This document shows, piece after piece, positions 43,790 to 52,029 of a stretch of 64,000 nucleotides of DNA. Source of the stretch: Planctomycetota bacterium (GTDB taxonomy: Bacteria > Planctomycetota > Planctomycetia > Planctomycetales > Planctomycetaceae); assembly GCA_038040225.1 (NCBI GenBank), contig JBBPIS010000024.1, positions 4,259 through 68,258 of the forward strand, in the 5' to 3' direction. Each line of letters begins with the position of its first letter. Positions within the stretch are counted from its first letter, which is position 1. The translations under genes and the position numbers were made by a program. The notes beneath the pieces were generated by a model. That model was not told where the DNA came from, did not search any database, and worked only from the letters and a program-made list of their open reading frames with translations.

Positions 43790-45064
43790 ATGTCTCACTC
43801 ACGCGTGATGTGGCTGTGTTGCACCGCCCTGCTGGCGGCGTTCGTCGTCGTCGGCTGCAAACCCCCTGCGGCCGGTCCCGGTGGCAAGGGCAAGACCGGC
43901 AATGGCACAGCACCGTCCGGCGGGCATCCGAACACGATCAAGATCGTGTCGAGTCTGCCTCGCACGGGGAGTGCCAAGCAGCAGACCGACACCATCGTGA
44001 ACGGCATCAAGATGGCCATCGACGAGGTCGGTGCCAAAGTGGGCGACTTCACGATCGAGTATCTCGACCTCGACGACGCGACCGCGTCCGCCGGGCAATG
44101 GACCGCCGAGGCCGAGACCGCGAATGCCGACCAGGCGGTCAAAGACAACGACGTGATGGTCTACATCGGCACCTACAACAGCGGTGCCGCCAAGATCTCG
44201 ATGCCGATTCTGAACCGCTCCCAATTGCTGATGGTCAGCCCGGCCAACACCTGGCCCGGACTGACCAAGCCCGGCAGCGGAGACCCCAGCGAACCGCATG
44301 TCTATCGTCCCACAGGCAAAATCACCTACGTGCGAGTCGTCCCGGCCGATGACCTGCAAGGAAGCCTCGCCGCCGAATGGGCGAACGACATGAAACTGAA
44401 GAAGGTCTACATCCTCGACGACAACGAAGTCTACGGCCGAGGCATCGCCAACCTGTTCGAGGAGCGAGCCGGTGAGATCGGCCTGACGGTGCTGGGTCAC
44501 GAAAGCATCGACGCGAAGTCACAGGAGTTCAAATCGCTGATGATTTCGATCAAGGCCAAGAATCCGGACCTGATCTACTTCGGTGGCACCACGCAGTCGA
44601 AGGGCGGTCAGATCGCCAAGGACATGGTCGCCGCGGGCCTCACCGCCAAGCTGATGGTTCCCGACGGCTGCATGGAGGAGGCGTTCATCACCTCCGCCGG
44701 AGCTGAAAACCTCAACGACCGCTGCTTCGTGACGTTCGGTGGCCTGCCACCGGAAAAGCTGACGGGCGCGGGGCAAGTCTTCGTCGAAAAGTACGAGGCC
44801 AAGTACAAAAGCAAACCCGAAGCCTACGCAATCTACGGCTACGAAGCGGCGAAGGTGGCGTTGGAGGCGATCAAGCGCGCCGGCAAAAAGGATCGCGCCG
44901 CGATCACTCAAGCCGCGCTCGGCATCAAGGATTTCGACGGCGCTCTCGGCAAGTGGTCGGTCGATGCCAACGGCGACACAACGATGAAAGTCCTCAGCGG
45001 CAACACGGTCAAAGACGGGAAGTTTGAATTCGTGAGATTGCTTGGTCAGCCGGAGTCCAAGTAA
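43790..45064 (+). CDS. livK: Branched-chain amino-acid-type ABC substrate-binding lipoprotein
   Basis: Lipobox VVGC; IGTYNSG, VSPANT, RVVP.DD.QG, DD.EVYG.G, AIYGYEA. Confidence 0.88.
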   Translation: MSHSRVMWLCCTALLAAFVVVGCKPPAAGPGGKGKTGNGTAPSGGHPNTIKIVSSLPRTGSAKQQTDTIVNGIKMAIDEVGAKVGDFTIEYLDLDDATASAGQWTAEAETANADQAVKDNDVMVYIGTYNSGAAKISMPILNRSQLLMVSPANTWPGLTKPGSGDPSEPHVYRPTGKITYVRVVPADDLQGSLAAEWANDMKLKKVYILDDNEVYGRGIANLFEERAGEIGLTVLGHESIDAKSQEFKSLMISIKAKNPDLIYFGGTTQSKGGQIAKDMVAAGLTAKLMVPDGCMEEAFITSAGAENLNDRCFVTFGGLPPEKLTGAGQVFVEKYEAKYKSKPEAYAIYGYEAAKVALEAIKRAGKKDRAAITQAALGIKDFDGALGKWSVDANGDTTMKVLSGNTVKDGKFEFVRLLGQPESK

Positions 45065-45101
45065 AAGTTTGACGGCGACAACGTCAGCAAAAGGAGACAG
45101 C

Positions 45102-45275
45102 ATGCAAGTCGAGCTAACCGGGGAAGACATCCAGACTCTCATCGAATCACTGCGCTACTCGAAGCAGCGTGTGGAGGATGCGCAGGGCACGCCACCGACG
45201 GTAAGAAAAGAAAACTTGGCTCGAATCGAATCCGCAGCGATCAAGCTGCGAAATGTCGGAACGAGCTCTAAGTAA
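45102..45275 (+). CDS. Small hypothetical protein (57 aa)
   Basis: AAGGAG RBS; amphipathic helical sequence. Confidence 0.6.
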   Translation: MQVELTGEDIQTLIESLRYSKQRVEDAQGTPPTVRKENLARIESAAIKLRNVGTSSK

Positions 45276-45342
45276 GTCCAGAAGGGTGTGTGGAGTCCTC
45301 GAAGCCGGTGGGTCACCTGCCAACCATTGGGAGTACGTTGTC

Positions 45343-45555
45343 ATGACTGGTTCCCGAGAGGAGTTGATTCGCTTGATCGAGCAGTTGAGCGAAGCCGACC
45401 CTGAATTGCGTCTGGGCCAGATGCTCACCAACCTGGCCACATTGGCGCGTGGTCCGCAGCCCGAGTCCGTGTGGGATTGCGAGGACGACGAACTGGTCGC
45501 GGCAGCCCAACGATTGCTGACTCGGATTCAAGAGTGCCAGACTGTGGTGGCTTAG
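45343..45555 (+). CDS. Small hypothetical protein (70 aa), weak DUF1040-like PELRLGQ motif
   Basis: GGGAG RBS; MTGSREELIRLIEQLSEADPELRLGQML. Confidence 0.6.
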   Translation: MTGSREELIRLIEQLSEADPELRLGQMLTNLATLARGPQPESVWDCEDDELVAAAQRLLTRIQECQTVVA

Positions 45556-45614
45556 AGGCATTTCAAAACCAACTGTACCATCTGGCAGCCCGTTCAATTC
45601 AGGGAGGTGGAAAG

Positions 45615-46379
45615 GTGGCTCGGAACGATCAGCGTCGGCAGAAGAAGTTGGAAGCGAAGCGAGTCAAACGCAAAGAACAACTGCGGGATGTTTCTCGCTT
45701 GAAATCGAGCGGGATTGGCGAACGCATGTTGGCGGGATGTCGCTGGCCGATCACGGAGTCGCGTGTTTCGGGCAGCATCTGGGAGAATGGGATCGGATAC
45801 GCGGTCTTGGTTCGGCGTGGGCCCGGTGGAACGACCGCGATAAGTTTGTTCCTGTTGGATGTCTACTGCCTGGGGGTCAAGGACGTTGTGGCGAAGGTTG
45901 AGCCGGAGCACTCTATCTCTGTCATGCTGGCAGGGTTGAATGACAATGGAACCCGTTGGATCAAGGTGTCACCGGAACACGTTCGGAAACTGGTTGAAAG
46001 TTCGATGGGATATGCCCTGAAACTGGGATTGGCTCCGCATCGTGAATGTGCCGCGGCGATGAAATTGTTCGGTGACATTGATGCTTCACAATGTTCGACC
46101 GAATTCGTCTTCGGCTGTGAGGGGAAGCCGCGTTACATCTCCGGTCCCAATGACAGCGCCGCGCGGAGCATGGCTGTCATCGACATTCTCAATCGGACAT
46201 GCGGTCCGGACGGGTTCCATTACTACGCTCACGTAGACAACCCCGGAAATCTGATCCCGTTCGAAGACGAATGGGATGACGACGAACAAATGAATCTCGA
46301 TGAGGACGAGCCTGAAAGGGAATCAGAAGTGGATGTCGCATCGGCGGCTCGGCCCGTCGATGCTGACCGCGCGGAATAA
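45615..46379 (+). CDS. Hypothetical protein with basic N-terminus and acidic C-terminus
   Basis: GGAGG upstream of GTG 45615; 254 codons. Confidence 0.7.
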   Translation: MARNDQRRQKKLEAKRVKRKEQLRDVSRLKSSGIGERMLAGCRWPITESRVSGSIWENGIGYAVLVRRGPGGTTAISLFLLDVYCLGVKDVVAKVEPEHSISVMLAGLNDNGTRWIKVSPEHVRKLVESSMGYALKLGLAPHRECAAAMKLFGDIDASQCSTEFVFGCEGKPRYISGPNDSAARSMAVIDILNRTCGPDGFHYYAHVDNPGNLIPFEDEWDDDEQMNLDEDEPERESEVDVASAARPVDADRAE

Positions 46380-46420
46380 TCGGAGCGGTACGGATAATTC
46401 ATACAATGTCAGGAAGTCCT

Positions 46421-46619
46421 GTAGTGTGCGTGGAGTCCTCGGAGCGCACCATGTGAGGCGACACGTCACGCGATGACATTAGGCGAGCGGCAGGAAAGAA
46501 CTTACCGGCTGACGTCCGTCCAGTGCCCCGTACGCTTCGGAGCGTCCGTGTCACTCTCGGTAAGGCCGCTCCTGCCGCTTGCCTTAGATGTTGCGTTTCG
46601 AGGACTCCACGCACCCTAC
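46421..46619. repeat. Large REPIN (~200-nt hairpin) of the GTAGGGTGCG family
   Basis: GTAGTGTGCGTGGAGTCCTCGGAGCGCACC ... GAGGACTCCACGCACCCTAC; inner arms TAGGCGAGCGGCAGGA/TCCTGCCGCTTGCCT and CTTACCG/CGGTAAG. Confidence 0.8.
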
Positions 46620-46643
46620 GATGACACGGACCACAACCAACCG

Positions 46644-47603
46644 ATGCTGTTTCTACTCCTCGCCGATGCTGCCAGCCCTTCCGCGTGGGAGCAGTTTCTT
46701 CAGCATTGCCTGATCGGTTTGACGACCGGTTCGCTGATCGCGCTGATCGCCCTCGGTTACACGATGGTCTATGGGATCATCGGGTTGATCAACTTCGCGC
46801 ACGGCGATCTGTTCATGCTGGGGGCGTTTCTCGCGCTGACGTTGCTGACGGCGATGGGTGTCGCGGGGCCGGATGCCTCGGCGAGCGGGGCGATGGCGGG
46901 GCTGGCAGTTTGTTTTCTGATCGTGCCCGTCTTTTGTGGCGGCTTGAATTGGGCGGTCGATCGGATCGTCTACAAGCCGCTGCGGAACGCACCAAAACTC
47001 GCACCGCTCGTGTCGGCCATCGGCGTCTCGTTCATCTTCATGAACGTCGGTCTGCTGTGGGGTGGTGCGGCCGACTTGAACTTCCCGAAGCTCGTTTCCG
47101 AGCAAAGCGTTTGGGGGGTGTCGGTCATTCAGTTCACGCTGAAGGACTTGCTGGTGATCGTCGTCACCGTGCCGATCATGGTGGGGCTGACGTTGTTCGT
47201 GAAGTTCACGCGGCTTGGCAAGGCGATGCGCGCCGTGGAGCAGAATCCGGTGGCGGCTCAACTGATGGGGATTCACGTCGATCGTGTCATCGGCGCGACG
47301 TTCGTAATCGGAGGCTCTCTGGCGGGAGTGGCCAGCGTCGTGTACGGCCTTTACATCAACACGATCAGTTTTCAGATGGGCTTTCAGAACGGACTGTATG
47401 CGTTCACGGCGGCGGTGCTGGGCGGCATCGGCAAGCTGCCGGGAGCCGTCCTGGGTGGACTGATCATCGGGTTGGCCCGCTCTCTCGGTTCGGCCTACAT
47501 CGGTGAGCGTTGGACCGGGGCGCTGATCTTCGCGATCCTGATCGTGATCCTCATTTTTCGACCTGCGGGCCTGCTGGGACGCTCGACACAGGACAAGGTA
47601 TGA
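46644..47603 (+). CDS. livH: Branched-chain amino-acid ABC permease
   Basis: ALIALGYTMVYGIIGLINFAHG, GKAMRA, AAVLGGIG.LPGA. Confidence 0.92.
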   Translation: MLFLLLADAASPSAWEQFLQHCLIGLTTGSLIALIALGYTMVYGIIGLINFAHGDLFMLGAFLALTLLTAMGVAGPDASASGAMAGLAVCFLIVPVFCGGLNWAVDRIVYKPLRNAPKLAPLVSAIGVSFIFMNVGLLWGGAADLNFPKLVSEQSVWGVSVIQFTLKDLLVIVVTVPIMVGLTLFVKFTRLGKAMRAVEQNPVAAQLMGIHVDRVIGATFVIGGSLAGVASVVYGLYINTISFQMGFQNGLYAFTAAVLGGIGKLPGAVLGGLIIGLARSLGSAYIGERWTGALIFAILIVILIFRPAGLLGRSTQDKV

Positions 47604-47622
47604 ACCGGCAACCGAGCAAAGT

Positions 47623-47717
47623 AGTGAAAAGTGAGGAGTGCAAAGTGCAAAGTGCAAAGTTACGGAGTGAACGACACACTTTGCACTTTGCACTTTGCAC
47701 TTCTCACTTTGCACTTT
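47623..47717. repeat. 7-mer-periodic inverted repeat (GTGCAAA)n/(TTTGCAC)n
   Basis: GTGCAAA x3 versus CTTTGCA x4, between livH and livM. Confidence 0.85.
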
Positions 47718-47790
47718 CTTCATACGCTTTCGCACGAAACTCAAGTGCGACTAACCAAGACTCGCATCCTCTTTTCGGTCGGGGGTGCCA

Positions 47791-48915
47791 ATGAAATCTT
47801 CTTGGCTCTCGCTCTTGAAACCCCTCCTGCCCGAACTGGTCGGGCTGCTCGTCCTGCTGTTGTTTCCAATTCTGCCGCTCGGCTGGCGATGGCTGCATCT
47901 GCCCGAGGTGATTCTGTTCGTCCCCGTGCAGGAAGTGCTCGACCGGGTGGCGGGCCAGCTTCCGATCATCTTCATTTTGACGATCCTCGCACTCGGGCTG
48001 AACGTGGTCGTCGGGTACACCGGCCTGCTGCACTTGGGAATGGGGGCGTTCTTCGGCATCGGCGCGTACCTCACCGGGATTCTCACCATTCCGGGGTATC
48101 CGTTTGAGTGCGGCTTCTGGCTCGCGCTGGTGTTGTCCACGTTCGGCGCGGCGCTGGCGGGAGTGATGCTCGCCGCGCCGACATTGCGGTTGCGCGGAGA
48201 CTATCTCGCGCTGGTGACGCTCGGCTTCGGCGAGGTCGTCCGGTTTTCGCTCCGCAATCTGGAAGAGATCACCGCCGGCACGAGGGCTCTCAACCCGATC
48301 CCGCCTCCGAATCTGACGTGGCTGGGGCTCACGCCGGGAAGTTGGAGCGACGACATGCGGCCGTTCTACTACCTGTGTCTGGTGATGCTTGCGGGGATGG
48401 TGTGGTTGTTGCGAAACCTCGAACGCTCGCGGCTCGGTCGAGCGTGGGTGGCAATTCGAGAAGATGAACTGGCGGCCACCTGCATGGGGATCAATGCCGC
48501 GCGAGCCAAACTCGCGGCCTTCGCGGTCGGGTCAGCGTTGGCCGGATTGGCCGGCAGCCTGTACGCGACGAAGCTCACCACCACGGCCGGTCCCGACGCC
48601 TACGACTTCAACCGCTCGATCATCGTGCTGGCGTGCGTGATCCTCGGCGGATTGGGGAGCATTCGCGGTGTCATCGTCGGTTCGTTCCTGCTCGTCGGCT
48701 TCGACAACGTCTTTGCCCCGATGCTCGACGGGATCATGCAGAAGGCGGCTGAGAGTGCATCCCAGAAATGGGACCTCAAACTGACCGACAATCCATTCCT
48801 GAAATTCACCAACTGGCGGTTGATGATCTTCGGTCTGGCGCTGGTGCTGATGATGCGGTACCGCCCCGAGGGCCTGCTCCCCTCCAAACGCGAATCCCAC
48901 GGGGAGGCAGTCTGA
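47791..48915 (+). CDS. livM: Branched-chain amino-acid ABC permease
   Basis: GLNVVVGYTGLLHLG, LRLRGDYLALVTLGFGE, SRLGRAW.AIREDE.AA..MGIN. Confidence 0.92.
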   Translation: MKSSWLSLLKPLLPELVGLLVLLLFPILPLGWRWLHLPEVILFVPVQEVLDRVAGQLPIIFILTILALGLNVVVGYTGLLHLGMGAFFGIGAYLTGILTIPGYPFECGFWLALVLSTFGAALAGVMLAAPTLRLRGDYLALVTLGFGEVVRFSLRNLEEITAGTRALNPIPPPNLTWLGLTPGSWSDDMRPFYYLCLVMLAGMVWLLRNLERSRLGRAWVAIREDELAATCMGINAARAKLAAFAVGSALAGLAGSLYATKLTTTAGPDAYDFNRSIIVLACVILGGLGSIRGVIVGSFLLVGFDNVFAPMLDGIMQKAAESASQKWDLKLTDNPFLKFTNWRLMIFGLALVLMMRYRPEGLLPSKRESHGEAV

Positions 48916-50411
48916 TGGCCCTGCTCTCTCTGCGCGGACTCACCATGCGGTTCGGCGGCCTGACCGCCGTCAGCGGCTTCGATCTGGAGGTCGAGCCGCT
49001 CAAGATCTATTCCATCATCGGACCCAACGGCGCCGGCAAGACCACGGCGTTCAATGCCATCACGGGCATCTATGCTCCGACGAGCGGAGAAATCGTCTTC
49101 GACAATCGCGAACTCCGCCGCCCGCCGACGTGGCACTTGTACGCCACCTGTGCCGTCGTGGCGATCGCGACTGGGTTGGGCCTGATGCTGATGACGGCCA
49201 ACATCGACACGCTGTGGCGAGTGGCGATCAAGAACAACAACGACGACGAAGCGCGGCAGCAACCAACGTCGGCGGCCGACTTCGCGAAATACGACTCGAA
49301 CTCGGATGGCCAGGTGTCGTTGAGCGAGTTGACCGACGGAGCAGCCTTGAAACCGGAGGGGCTGCTCGCGCGAGGCGACGACAACGGCGACGGGCAACTC
49401 AGTCGAACGGAGTACCTGCGAGCAGAACGCTGGCGGTTCGACTGGCCCAACGCACGGCGCGATGCGGCGCGGCAACTTCGCGGCGAGCCGGGCCTCGTCC
49501 GGCGAGGGAGCCGCTGGCAGATTGTCCCCGCGACCAGCAACCGTCTGCTGGCGACCGCTCCCCATCTCAAGCAAGCGCTGGTGACGCGCGACAACCATGC
49601 CGAGGCGGTCGCGCTCTCTCGCGGAGACTGGAGGCCGATCGAGCGTGATGGCAAGCAGGTCTTCCTCTCTGCCGATGGTCAACGAGAACTGTTGTCGGCT
49701 CCCGATGCAGACTCCGCCAAGATCAAGCTGGCTCAATTGAAAGAGGTCGCGGCTGAACAGACGACTCACCGCCGCAACCAGTGGCTCGCGCTGTTGGGAG
49801 GCATGCTGGTGGGCGGTCTGGGAACGTACTCGGTCTGGCAGCGATCGCGACGGACTCCCGATGTGATCGCCCTCGCCGGGATCGCCCGCACGTTTCAGAA
49901 CATCCGGCTGTTTCAGAACATGACCGTGCTGGAGAACGTGCTCGTCGGGATGGACCGCAGCTTCTCACCCAATCTGTTCGGCATGTTGTTCCATACGACG
50001 GCCCAGCGGCTTCAAGAGACTCAACGGCGTGCGCGGGCCAGGGAAATCCTCGAGTTTGTCGGCTTGGGCCTCAAACAAGAAAACCTCGCCAAAAACCTGC
50101 CGTATGGCGAACAGCGGCGACTTGAGATCGCGCGGGCGATGGCGGCGGAGCCAAAGCTGCTGCTGCTCGACGAGCCGGCCGCGGGCATGAACCCGACCGA
50201 GTCAGAAGAACTGATGCACCTCATCCGGCGGATTCGCGACACCGGCGCGACCGTGCTGCTGATCGAGCATCACATGAAACTGGTCATGGACATTTCCGAC
50301 CGGATCGCGGTGCTGGACTACGGCCAGAAGATCGCCGAGGGAACGCCGGCCGAAGTCCGGGCCAATCCCCGAGTCATCGAAGCGTACCTCGGCAAGGAAG
50401 ATGTCAGTTGA
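48915..50411 (+). CDS. livG: ABC ATPase LivG with ~240-aa internal TM/EF-hand insertion
   Basis: [37 protein letters not shown]; insertion at about 49120-49850. Confidence 0.9.
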
Positions 50412-50422
50412 AGAAGGAAGCG

Positions 50423-50540
50423 ATTGCAAAATGACAATTGGTAATTGCGAATTGCAAAATGGAAGACGAAAAGAGCGACCTCCGCCGCTGCCCCTCTTCT
50501 TCAATTTGCAATTTGCATTTCGCAATTACCAATTCGCAAT
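50423..50540. repeat. 7-mer-periodic inverted repeat (ATTGC/GCAAT type)
   Basis: ATTGGTAATTGCGAA / TTCGCAATTACCAAT, between livG and livF. Confidence 0.85.
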
Positions 50541-50585
50541 GTCCTCCCTCCTCACCGCCCCAACCTCATCGAAAGCCCAGGAACC

Positions 50586-51299
50586 TTGGCCAAACTGCTG
50601 ACCATCGAACAACTGCACGCCGGCTACGGGCCGATTGAGGTTCTCAAGGGGATCTCGATCGAGGTCAACGAGGGCGAGATCGTCACCATCATCGGGGCGA
50701 ACGGTGCTGGTAAGACGACGACGCTGATGACTGTCTCGGGTGCCATCAAGGCTCGCGCCGGCCGGATCGTCTGGTCGGGCCGTGAGATTCAAAACCTTCC
50801 GCCGCATGAGATCGTTCGACTCGGTCTCTGCCAGTCACCGGAAGGCCGCAAGATTTTTCCTCGGCTGACGGTGTTGGAGAATCTGGAACTCGGAGCCTAC
50901 ACCCGCCGCGACAAGGCCGGGATTCAGAAGGACATCGATCACGCTTACGAACTGTTTCCGATCCTGAGCGAGCGCAAGGCCCAGCTTGGTGGCACGCTCT
51001 CGGGCGGCGAGCAGCAGATGTTGGCGGTGGCCCGCGCCCTGATGGGGCGACCGAAACTGTTGCTGCTCGACGAACCGTCACTCGGGCTGGCTCCGCTCAT
51101 CGTGCTGAAGATCTTTGAAGTCATCCGCCGACTCAACGCCGAAGGGATGTCGGTGCTGCTGGTCGAACAGAACGCGCGGCTGGCTCTGAAGCTGGCTCAT
51201 CGCGGCTACGTGATGGAAACCGGCAGCATCACCATGAGCAATTCGGCCGACGTGCTGCTGAACGACCAGCGCGTGAAGGATGCGTACCTGGGCGAGTAG
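50586..51299 (+). CDS. livF: ABC ATPase LivF
   Basis: GANGAGKTT, QSPEGR, LSGGEQQML, LLLDEP, LVEQN; TTG start 50586. Confidence 0.92.
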   Translation: MAKLLTIEQLHAGYGPIEVLKGISIEVNEGEIVTIIGANGAGKTTTLMTVSGAIKARAGRIVWSGREIQNLPPHEIVRLGLCQSPEGRKIFPRLTVLENLELGAYTRRDKAGIQKDIDHAYELFPILSERKAQLGGTLSGGEQQMLAVARALMGRPKLLLLDEPSLGLAPLIVLKIFEVIRRLNAEGMSVLLVEQNARLALKLAHRGYVMETGSITMSNSADVLLNDQRVKDAYLGE

Positions 51300-51309
51300 C
51301 GGTGACCGA

Positions 51310-52029
51310 TCAGGATTCGCCCGCAGAAGCGGCCTTCTCCGCCGCCAGTCGTTGCTTCCTGATCGCAAGTCGATGCTGATACCACTCCCAGAAAGGAGGG
51401 AGCAGCGAGATGCCGACGATCGCCACCATCACCATCTCGAAGTTCTTCTGCACGATGGACAGGGTGCCGAAGTAGTACCCGAGCAGCGTGAAGATCAGCA
51501 CCCACACGATGCCGCCGACCACGTTGTAGAGGGCGAAACGGCGGTAATCCATCGCGCCGATCCCGGCCACGAACGGCGCGAATGTTCTGATGATCGGAAC
51601 GAACCGCGCGAGGATGATCGTCTTGCCGCCGTATTTGTCGAAGAATCGCTGCGTCTTTTCGAGATGTGCCTGCTTGAGGAACGGCAGCCTGCCGCTGAAG
51701 GCTCGCGGGCCGATCCAGCGCCCGATGGCATAGTTGACCGTGTCGCCCAAGACGGCGGCGATCATGAGCAGCGGCAGCAGCCACTCGATGTACAGCGTCC
51801 GGTCCGCCGCGAAGGCCCCCGCCGCGAACAGCAGGGAGTCCCCCGGCAGGAACGGAGTCACGATCAGGCCGGTCTCGCAGAAGATGACCGCGAACAGGAT
51901 CGCGTGCGACCAGACACCGTACTGAGCGACGATCTTCTTGAGTTCATCGTCGAGGTGAAACAGGAGATCGAAGCTCCACCAGAACAACTCGACCAGACTG
52001 TTGAACCACTGACTGAGCATTTCCATCAC
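51310..52029 (-). CDS. DedA family membrane protein
   Basis: FCETGL...FLPGDSLLF, GDTVNY.IGR, ARFVPIIRTFAPFVAG. Confidence 0.93.
   Translation of the reverse strand: MMEMLSQWFNSLVELFWWSFDLLFHLDDELKKIVAQYGVWSHAILFAVIFCETGLIVTPFLPGDSLLFAAGAFAADRTLYIEWLLPLLMIAAVLGDTVNYAIGRWIGPRAFSGRLPFLKQAHLEKTQRFFDKYGGKTIILARFVPIIRTFAPFVAGIGAMDYRRFALYNVVGGIVWVLIFTLLGYYFGTLSIVQKNFEMVMVAIVGISLLPPFWEWYQHRLAIRKQRLAAEKAASAGES

Follow-up and report, generated by a model that had tools for sequence, protein, structure and literature searches.

ATP-binding cassette (ABC) importer ATPases are textbook peripheral and soluble subunits, which, in the usual view, communicate with the outside solely via the permease. The gene livG, located at positions 48915-50411 (+) of a 64,000-nt stretch of DNA from a Planctomycetota bacterium (assembly GCA_038040225.1, contig JBBPIS010000024.1; this whole stretch is referred to as the window, and all coordinates are window positions), raises the question of whether the ATPase of a Liv-type importer can itself be threaded through the membrane. 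According to the original prediction, made from the sequence alone, the livG product is an integral-membrane nucleotide-binding domain (NBD) with an extracytoplasmic Ca2+-binding domain. In silico, this picture held for the helix pair, for the EF-hand loops, and, by the most economical topology, for the location of the inserted domain outside the cytoplasm, but not for the gating of uptake by the Ca2+-binding domain that the prediction had put forward as a possibility. We propose, with a probability of roughly 0.6, that livG encodes the single LivG of the Liv-type importer of a Schlesneria-like planctomycete, and that this protein is threaded through the membrane and carries a two-layer outer domain.

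livG encodes a split but intact LivG-type NBD

The gene is a single uninterrupted frame of 498 aa (translation), in which the following parts were delineated:

48915..50411 (+), livG, LivG-type ABC ATPase with insert (Pfam, NCBIfam, AlphaFold2)
48915..49124 (+), N-terminal part of the NBD, aa 1-70, with A-loop F13, Walker A, and the ABC-beta strands (motifs, AlphaFold2)
49131..49196 (+), TM1, first transmembrane-type (TM) helix, aa 73-94 (Kyte-Doolittle [KD] 19-residue mean 2.01; AlphaFold2 helix 73-94)
49203..49232 (+), helix just after TM1, with D98 and W101 nearly invariant family-wide (alignments, AlphaFold2)
49245..49430 (+), Schlesneria-specific EF-hand pair, aa ~111-172 (EF-hand Pfam matches, Foldseek)
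49431..49781 (+), family-wide core of the insert, aa 173-289, consisting of a helix and two beta-beta-(beta)-alpha repeats (AlphaFold2, family alignment)
49782..49838 (+), TM2, second TM-type helix, aa 290-308, glycine-rich (G296, G300, G303), then W308-Q-R-S-RRTPD (KD mean 1.29, AlphaFold2)
49854..50408 (+), C-terminal part of the NBD, aa 314-498, with a helix, Q328, the signature, Walker B, the H-loop, and the BCA_ABC_TP_C tail

As had been predicted together with the uninterrupted frame, every catalytic motif is intact: Walker A GPNGAGKT (36-43), the Q-loop RTFQ (Q328), the signature YGEQRR (397-402), Walker B LLLLDEP (415-421), and the H-loop IEHH (450-453). These motifs and the A-loop F13 are invariant across 64 relatives. 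The Pfam ABC_tran match (PF00005) is broken into two stretches, the best C-terminal one starting at aa 321, and the LivG-specific tail BCA_ABC_TP_C (PF12399) was detected at aa 471-496 with 56.3 bits (cut-off 25.5). Among the NCBIfam models, LivG (NF008449) ranks first with 293 bits, 93 bits ahead of UrtD. This score does not reach the LivG equivalog cut-off of 362, because the insert splits the model match, and it is a caution for annotation that insert-bearing genes drop below this cut-off. The livG product is the NBD of a HAAT-family ABC importer, of LivG type and split but intact.

Its best match in both sequence and fold is canonical LivG/MJ1267 (TC 3.A.1.4; PDB 1G6H, 1GAJ), with which it has in common the YG(D/E)QRR signature, the BCA_ABC_TP_C tail, and LivH, LivM, LivF, and a Peripla_BP_6 protein as partners. 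The statement of the original prediction that LivG is normally a protein of ~255 aa agrees with the 255 positions of the NCBIfam LivG model and with the 252-273 aa of the canonical planctomycete LivGs that we extracted. In the latter, 46-52 residues separate Walker A from RTFQ, compared to 289 in the window protein, which, with its 498 aa and two membrane-type helices, differs from the soluble, single-domain canonical form. The alignment to MJ1267 (PDB 1G6H) is interrupted between query residues 75 and 315, which puts the insert behind the last ABC-beta strand and ahead of the short helix preceding the Q-loop strand.

AlphaFold2 modeling of the full-length protein from a 64-sequence alignment yielded a mean predicted local distance difference test score (pLDDT) of 90.4 and a predicted template modeling score (pTM) of 0.71. 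In this model, the two halves rejoin as a normal NBD, with target-normalized template modeling scores (TM-scores) of 0.82-0.91 against LptB and MJ1267 (0.86-0.91 against LptB alone). LptB, a constituent of LptB2FGC, is the next-closest NBD and the closest one solved inside a full transporter. In the 8.24-Mb genome, which is 99.9% complete, livG is the sole LivG present, and the insert-bearing form must therefore be the working one.

Anatomy of the insert

The insert comprises 243 aa, where ~240 aa between Walker A and the Q-loop had been predicted, and consists of TM1 (73-94), a folded domain of 195 aa (95-289), and TM2 (290-308). The positions proposed earlier for TM1 (aa 73-93, nt 49131-49193) and TM2 (nt 49782-49838) turned out to be exact upon translation. 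In the AlphaFold2 model, linkers of just 4-5 residues connect the insert to the NBD. TM2 stops four residues ahead of the short helix feeding the Q-loop strand, and its membrane edge is ~20 residues away from Q328.

Modeled on its own, the folded domain (aa 95-289) reached a pLDDT of 93.7 and a pTM of 0.81. The short helix following TM1 (97-106) is kept even in minimal family members with a 40-aa loop. It precedes an EF-hand lobe with helices 119-126, 136-141, 147-154, and 164-170, which is followed by helix 177-188 and by two repeats (193-234 and 242-289). The helix of the last repeat runs into TM2, forming one continuous helix (265-310) whose final 19 residues constitute TM2.

Foldseek searches against the PDB matched the EF-hand part only and returned nothing for the beta-beta-alpha core, and no Pfam family above threshold was detected for this core in the window protein or in 96 relatives (E <= 0.001). 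SPOR and DUF2188 were considered as possible identities of the repeats and rejected: long relatives reach 20.8 for DUF2188 (threshold 22) and 17.9 for SPOR (threshold 21), and in the window protein neither was detected. Searching 1.84 billion proteins with a profile of the core gave no more than 99 cluster representatives, almost all of which are LivGs matched from about residue 95; the few long non-LivG matches were weak, repetitive, and without informative domains.

Across 64 sequences, G296, G300, and G303 of TM2 are at least 90% conserved, and W308 and R312 are invariant. Further top-conserved positions of the insert are R310, R313, T314, and D316, as well as W101 after TM1. The glycine motif of TM2, the cytoplasmic anchor W-x-R-x-RRTPD, and the short helix following TM1 make up the invariant parts of the family. 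The conserved residues of the core are hydrophobic, and conserved polar or catalytic residues were not found there, which points away from an enzyme and toward a scaffold or a contact surface.

The insert is conserved and under purifying selection

A search with the insert region identified 89 proteins, including 21 close ones (55-86% identity, mostly exactly 498 aa) and ~65 distant "LivG" proteins of 346-645 aa. The ten loci with close relatives are labeled Schlesneria or Planctomycetota metagenome-assembled genomes, and all relatives that carry a name, a minority of the database hits, are planctomycetes. Ratios of nonsynonymous to synonymous substitution rates (dN/dS), computed across 10 Schlesneria orthologues, were 0.12-0.39 for the TM helices, 0.05-0.33 for the EF-hand pair, 0.11-0.26 for the core, and 0.08-0.11 for the NBD. 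The insert is under purifying selection.

These data bear directly on an alternative that the original prediction had itself raised for the insert, namely, a misassembly. A misassembly, a chimeric open reading frame (ORF), or a LivG pseudogene into which foreign DNA has inserted would account for the unusual protein length, and this length is the sole argument in its favor. However, the same 498-aa frame, at 55-86% identity, is found again in over 20 independent assemblies, dN/dS is far under 1 in every part of livG, the sequence has no composition break along its length, Pfam searches of the product revealed no intein or transposase signatures, and the gene is the only LivG of a nearly complete genome. 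In effect, this rules out an artifact, the probability of which we consider negligible.

The EF-hand pair is a Schlesneria-specific layer

EF loop 1 (aa 127-138, from nt 49293) and EF loop 2 (aa 155-166, from nt 49377) start exactly where EF-hand-like loops had been predicted. Both fit the canonical 12-residue pattern (D1, D/N3, D5, G6, a hydrophobic residue at position 8, and E12), with ligand positions invariant or nearly so in 14 orthologues. Two Pfam models score above their cut-offs, EF-hand_5 (PF13202) with 26.8 bits in the whole protein and 29.7 bits in the insert alone (cut-off 25.9) and EF-hand_1 (PF00036) with 25.7 bits in the insert alone (cut-off 25.4), whereas the pair model EF-hand_7 (PF13499) stays below threshold in the insert alone (21.9 versus 30). 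The EF part of the AlphaFold2 model (pLDDT >90) forms a calmodulin-like helix-loop-helix lobe, and its Foldseek matches in the PDB are EF-hand proteins, among others calmodulin, troponin C, CDPK, NCS-1, and the regulatory domain of SCaMC; several of these matches have a root-mean-square deviation of 1.6-3 A over 56-61 columns, 24-31% identity, and E values of 0.02-0.1. The pair is predicted most likely to hold Ca2+ in Schlesneria.

Family alignments revealed that the EF module (aa ~111-172) is confined to the Schlesneria group and absent from all distant members. In members outside Schlesneria, the helix following TM1 (consensus LWRAAIKRN) leads straight to F175...YLRG and the two repeats. Hence, the EF-hands are a Schlesneria-only addition within an older and wider insert family, and Ca2+ binding cannot explain the membrane threading of LivG. 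The feature specific to the window protein is the nested EF-hand pair; the helix pair is common to a wider planctomycete LivG clade.

The EF module itself is still evolving within Schlesneria. One Schlesneria relative (P0017) has a third EF-hand loop, DENGDGQLDRVE, between the two others, and in two further ones (P0014 and P0015) the linker between the loops is 24 residues longer. The first loop of P0022 is degenerate. Elsewhere in the genome of the window, 21 other ORFs encode paired canonical EF loops, and 17 of these 21 have signal-peptide-like N termini, compared to 25-39% among 600 random long ORFs judged by the same crude heuristic.

Bacterial EF-hand pairs of similar design are found in calsymin and in EfhP (PA4107) of P. 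aeruginosa. EfhP has two canonical loops at residues 88-99 and 115-126, spaced by 15 residues (16 in the livG product), and a prediction anchors it in the inner membrane, facing the periplasm (PMC4053335); specific Ca2+ binding by EfhP is reported in the title of PMC9132961. EfhP stands alone as a small protein with a single N-terminal anchor, whereas the EF pair of the livG product is nested inside the insert of an ABC ATPase.

Origin and diversification of the insert

We sampled 201 Planctomycetota genomes, 80 of which contained a LivG-like match, and extracted the best 60 loci. Among these best 60, LivG is canonical in 37 (46-52 residues from Walker A to RTFQ), with 70 residues in one more, and 10 have inserts of 122-404 residues at this place. 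The original prediction had proposed a survey of long LivG homologues for helix pairs and variable inserts; both were found, the outer loop ranging from ~40 to ~390 aa across the family. Minimal forms consist of TM1, a loop of ~40 residues that keeps LW.AAI and F/PW..A, and TM2, and the long members P0034, P0037, and P0047 have four or five beta-beta-alpha-type repeats.

A maximum-likelihood tree was inferred from the NBD parts only of 30 insert-bearing and 37 canonical LivGs. It grouped 28 of the 30 insert-bearing proteins in one split (ultrafast bootstrap 99, Shimodaira-Hasegawa-like approximate likelihood ratio test 94), with all 37 canonical ones on the opposite side, and sister sequences differed strongly in loop length (233 versus 137 and 228 versus 151). 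Judged from these sequences, with their single supported split and the differences between sisters, the helix hairpin originated essentially once, and the outer loop has grown and shrunk repeatedly thereafter. A loop extended from 40 to 390 residues via small repeats, with EF-hands added in one genus, is a case of modular evolution at a single site.

The two insert-bearing LivGs outside the main split (loci L023 and L045 of genomes G029 and G088, respectively) have apparently unrelated inserts at the same site. One of these inserts is rich in Ala and lies in a protein whose Walker A and RTFQ are 128 residues apart; the other, with 186 residues, has three hydrophobic segments. A possible reading is that this position is an insertion-tolerant hot spot.

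A second hydrophobic helix pair was observed ~30-80 residues past the Q-loop in P0041, P0043, P0052, P0053, P0059, P0062, P0063, P0065, and P0069-P0071 (e.g., L014 6001-7422). Its site roughly coincides with the classical LivG-specific insert of the helical subdomain, and such proteins would have four membrane-type helices per NBD.

In 7 of 9 other sampled genomes of the same taxonomic family, no LivG-like match (E <= 1e-25) was found, which indicates that the Liv system is patchy among close relatives.

Predicted membrane topology

TM1 was found in nearly all of ~86 family members. Its 19-residue KD mean is 2.4-2.5 family-wide, with a family average of 2.47 and values up to 3.06, it is uncharged over 19-22 residues, and its summed Hessa apparent free energy is below 0 in 85% of the members. 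TM2 has a KD mean of ~1.8-1.9 in the family and a median summed Hessa value of +1.0 kcal/mol. The values for the window protein, -0.1 kcal/mol for TM1 and +3.0 kcal/mol for TM2, are within the range of the LivH and LivM helices encoded in the same operon (-1.5 to +3.9). Both helices are bordered by aromatic and arginine residues, and TM2 has a glycine zipper. As both halves of the NBD are necessarily cytoplasmic, either both helices span the membrane or neither does, and if they span it, the folded domain is periplasmic. An outside location is also favored by the predominance of signal-peptide-like N termini among the other ORFs of this genome with paired EF loops and by a loop spacing close to that of EfhP, with its predicted periplasmic EF-hands. 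We predict that LivG is quite probably threaded through the membrane, with its folded domain outside the cytoplasm.

In the proposed arrangement, the NBD chain would enter TM1 after the last ABC-beta strand (aa ~67), form the 195-aa domain, and return via TM2. The old layer of the outer domain would comprise the helix following TM1, a second helix, two beta-beta-alpha repeats, and the stalk into TM2, and the genus-specific layer would be the canonical EF-hand pair, most likely holding Ca2+. The helix pair might pack on LivH and LivM, by which LivG would become integral to the membrane sector, and TM2, with its glycine zipper and the RSRRTPD anchor, might provide a short stiff link to the helix and strand of Q328. 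The outer domain would probably be adjacent to the docking site of the lipoprotein-type binding protein. The role of Ca2+ in extracytoplasmic EF-hands is usually structural, and in Schlesneria Ca2+ would most likely stabilize the outer domain; a secondary modulating role is possible.

Several observations weigh against parts of this arrangement. TM2 of the window protein is marginally hydrophobic (KD 1.29, ~+3 kcal/mol), and would depend on TM1 or on partner helices for its insertion. Only a small positive-inside bias was measured around the helix pair (K+R 6.7 in cytoplasmic versus 5.7 in outer flanks, p = 0.002), the segment before TM2 is basic (HRRNQ), the outer domain is arginine-rich, and the count of presumably exported EF-hand ORFs was obtained by a crude signal-peptide heuristic. 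Furthermore, the conserved hydrophobic residues of the core speak for its fold, not for its function, and the functional steps, i.e., packing on LivHM, coupling to the Q-loop, and contact to the binding protein, are purely inferred.

The marginal TM2, the weak positive-inside signal with basic residues before TM2, and the arginine content of the insert would also fit helices that do not cross the membrane, the insert then being a cytoplasmic regulatory or oligomerization domain on a helical hairpin stalk, and AlphaFold2 is blind to the difference between membrane and solvent. However, a strongly hydrophobic TM1, with no charge along 19-22 residues in almost all ~86 members, two helices inside the range of real LivH and LivM helices, their flanking aromatic and arginine residues, and the glycine zipper of TM2 speak against a cytoplasmic insert. 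So do the EF-hand pairs of this genome, which are mostly located on exported proteins, and the minimal forms, since two helices with a 40-aa loop are ill-suited to a soluble regulatory domain. A cytoplasmic location is thus rather improbable, and the threaded form is the one considered in the following.

Possible roles of the outer domain

With the outer domain in the periplasm, the EF-hands might act as a Ca2+ sensor that gates ATP hydrolysis and uptake via TM2 and the Q-loop. Two canonical and invariant EF loops and the end of TM2 ~20 residues from Q328 are compatible with such gating, and the habitats of Schlesneria relatives include peat bogs and glacier-fed streams, in which Ca2+ is so low that occupancy could vary. 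A precedent is EfhP, a periplasm-facing EF-hand protein mediating Ca2+ responses (PMC4053335; title of PMC9132961). However, the EF pair is found in one genus, and the insert exists without it in ~65 other lineages, so that Ca2+ gating cannot be the function of the family. In addition, extracytoplasmic EF-hands are commonly structural, the regulatory coupling is unsupported, and the first loop of P0022 is degenerate. We therefore consider gating by Ca2+ unlikely.

More broadly, it is tempting to speculate that LivG is a transmembrane signaling device, in which outer events pass down TM2 to the Q-loop and license ATP hydrolysis directly; such an event could be a loaded binding protein docking or, for the Schlesneria proteins, Ca2+ occupying the EF-hands. 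This idea has about as little likelihood as gating by Ca2+, and, if true, ABC importers would have, beyond the coupling helices of the permease, a further and novel way to couple across the membrane. The opposite direction is less probable still, i.e., that ATP-driven motion of the NBD makes the periplasmic domain do work via the TM2 stalk, possibly ejecting an empty binding protein or, in the manner of MacB/FtsEX-type systems, acting on the envelope. The continuous helix 265-310 joining the last repeat to TM2, the very short connection to the Q-loop region, a plastic outer loop such as expected of a lineage-specific effector, and the sub-threshold SPOR-like and DUF2188-like matches in long members would suit outward transmission of force. 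On the other hand, the core is devoid of conserved polar or catalytic residues, minimal forms nearly lack an outer domain, the SPOR matches are under threshold, and the operon is that of an ordinary importer with a binding protein.

Substitution of the LivG hairpin for N-terminal helices lost from LivM was considered but found no support, as canonical planctomycete operons show the same single segment. LivM of the window has ~60 residues with one hydrophobic segment before its core, compared to ~116 residues in the E. coli model; this comparison is rough, since many loci are incomplete and start codons are uncertain.

Comparison with known systems

In full-text literature searches, neither LivG nor another importer NBD was found described with a membrane hairpin, and no solved LivHMGF complex was found in the literature searched. 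Likewise, no PDB chain has the architecture of the livG product by sequence or fold. This bears out the impression behind the original prediction that such an architecture was not known to be characterized.

For the accessory helices of LivG, the best functional analogy is the helix of LptC. This TM helix comes from a non-permease subunit, packs between permease helices, and modulates ATPase activity. In LptB2FGC, however, the accessory helix is located on a separate protein, and the system is an exporter or extractor and not a binding-protein-dependent importer. The regulatory insertion of CFTR NBD1 (aa 404-435) is likewise a lineage-specific addition to the ABC-beta part of an intact NBD and is thought to modulate coupling, but it is short, disordered, and cytoplasmic, lies between strands 1 and 2, and has neither membrane helices nor a folded domain. 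In type VII ABC systems (MacB, LolCDE, FtsEX), a periplasmic domain is linked via long stalk helices to the cytoplasmic ATPase cycle. There, in contrast to LivG, helices and periplasmic domain are part of the permease polypeptide, and no solute is imported; Pfam and Foldseek searches detected no homology of the livG insert to these systems.

A clade in which the chain of the ATPase leaves and re-enters the cytoplasm near the Q-loop would be a system for studying the coupling of binding-protein docking to ATP hydrolysis. It would also allow tests of how accessory helices tune ABC transporters and how a P-loop domain split by a membrane hairpin attains its fold.

The liv operon and its neighborhood

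All Liv-type genes in the window have the same direction and the order livK-livH-livM-livG-livF, and distant insert-bearing LivGs are encoded in operons of the same order. The genes accompanying livG and the structured spacers are as follows:

43790..45064 (+), livK/livJ-like substrate-binding protein, probably a lipoprotein (Pfam Peripla_BP_6 136 bits; N-terminal lipobox ...VVGC)
46644..47603 (+), LivH-type permease, probable start at M58 of ORF 46473-47603 (Pfam BPD_transp_2 152 bits)
47620..47725 (+), hairpin in the livH-livM spacer with GTGCAAA heptads (RNA fold -61.1 kcal/mol, z = -10.1)
47785..48915 (+), LivM-type permease (Pfam BPD_transp_2 156 bits; NCBIfam LivM 214 bits)
50412..50545 (+), hairpin in the livG-livF spacer with TTGCAAA-type repeats (RNA fold -43.6 kcal/mol, z = -4.5)
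50586..51299 (+), LivF-type ATPase without insert, probable TTG start at 50586 (NCBIfam LivF 271 bits)

Every Liv partner subunit scores under its NCBIfam cut-off. The best NCBIfam match of the binding protein is a branched-chain amino-acid binding protein (108 bits versus a cut-off of 477), and its only hydrophobic segment is the N-terminal signal sequence. NCBIfam LivH matches the LivH-type permease with 243 bits, residue 74 of the ORF being aligned to model position 7. The LivF alignment begins at residue 51 of its ORF, and LivF has no hydrophobic segment. The ATG of livG shares one base with the livM stop codon (TGATG, 48913-48917).

The hairpin between livH and livM is near-perfect (~33 bp), with arms of tandem GTGCAAA heptads, a repeat with 7 observed matches in the window and an expectation of 0.01. 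Within the operon, this hairpin may serve in mRNA processing or stability or be a repetitive extragenic palindromic (REP)-like repeat. The 174-nt spacer between livG and livF has a hairpin that resembles it in design but not in sequence.

The gap of ~1.5 kb between livK and livH (45065-46640) contains two ORFs, 45253-45555 (100 aa) and 45471-46379 (302 aa), neither of which has a Pfam or NCBIfam match. Directly after livF, a gene for a DedA/VTT-domain membrane protein is located on the opposite strand (51310-52029, -). A DedA/VTT gene is also found beside a distant insert-bearing liv operon (L013 8168-8857), and this neighborhood of the liv operon may be conserved.

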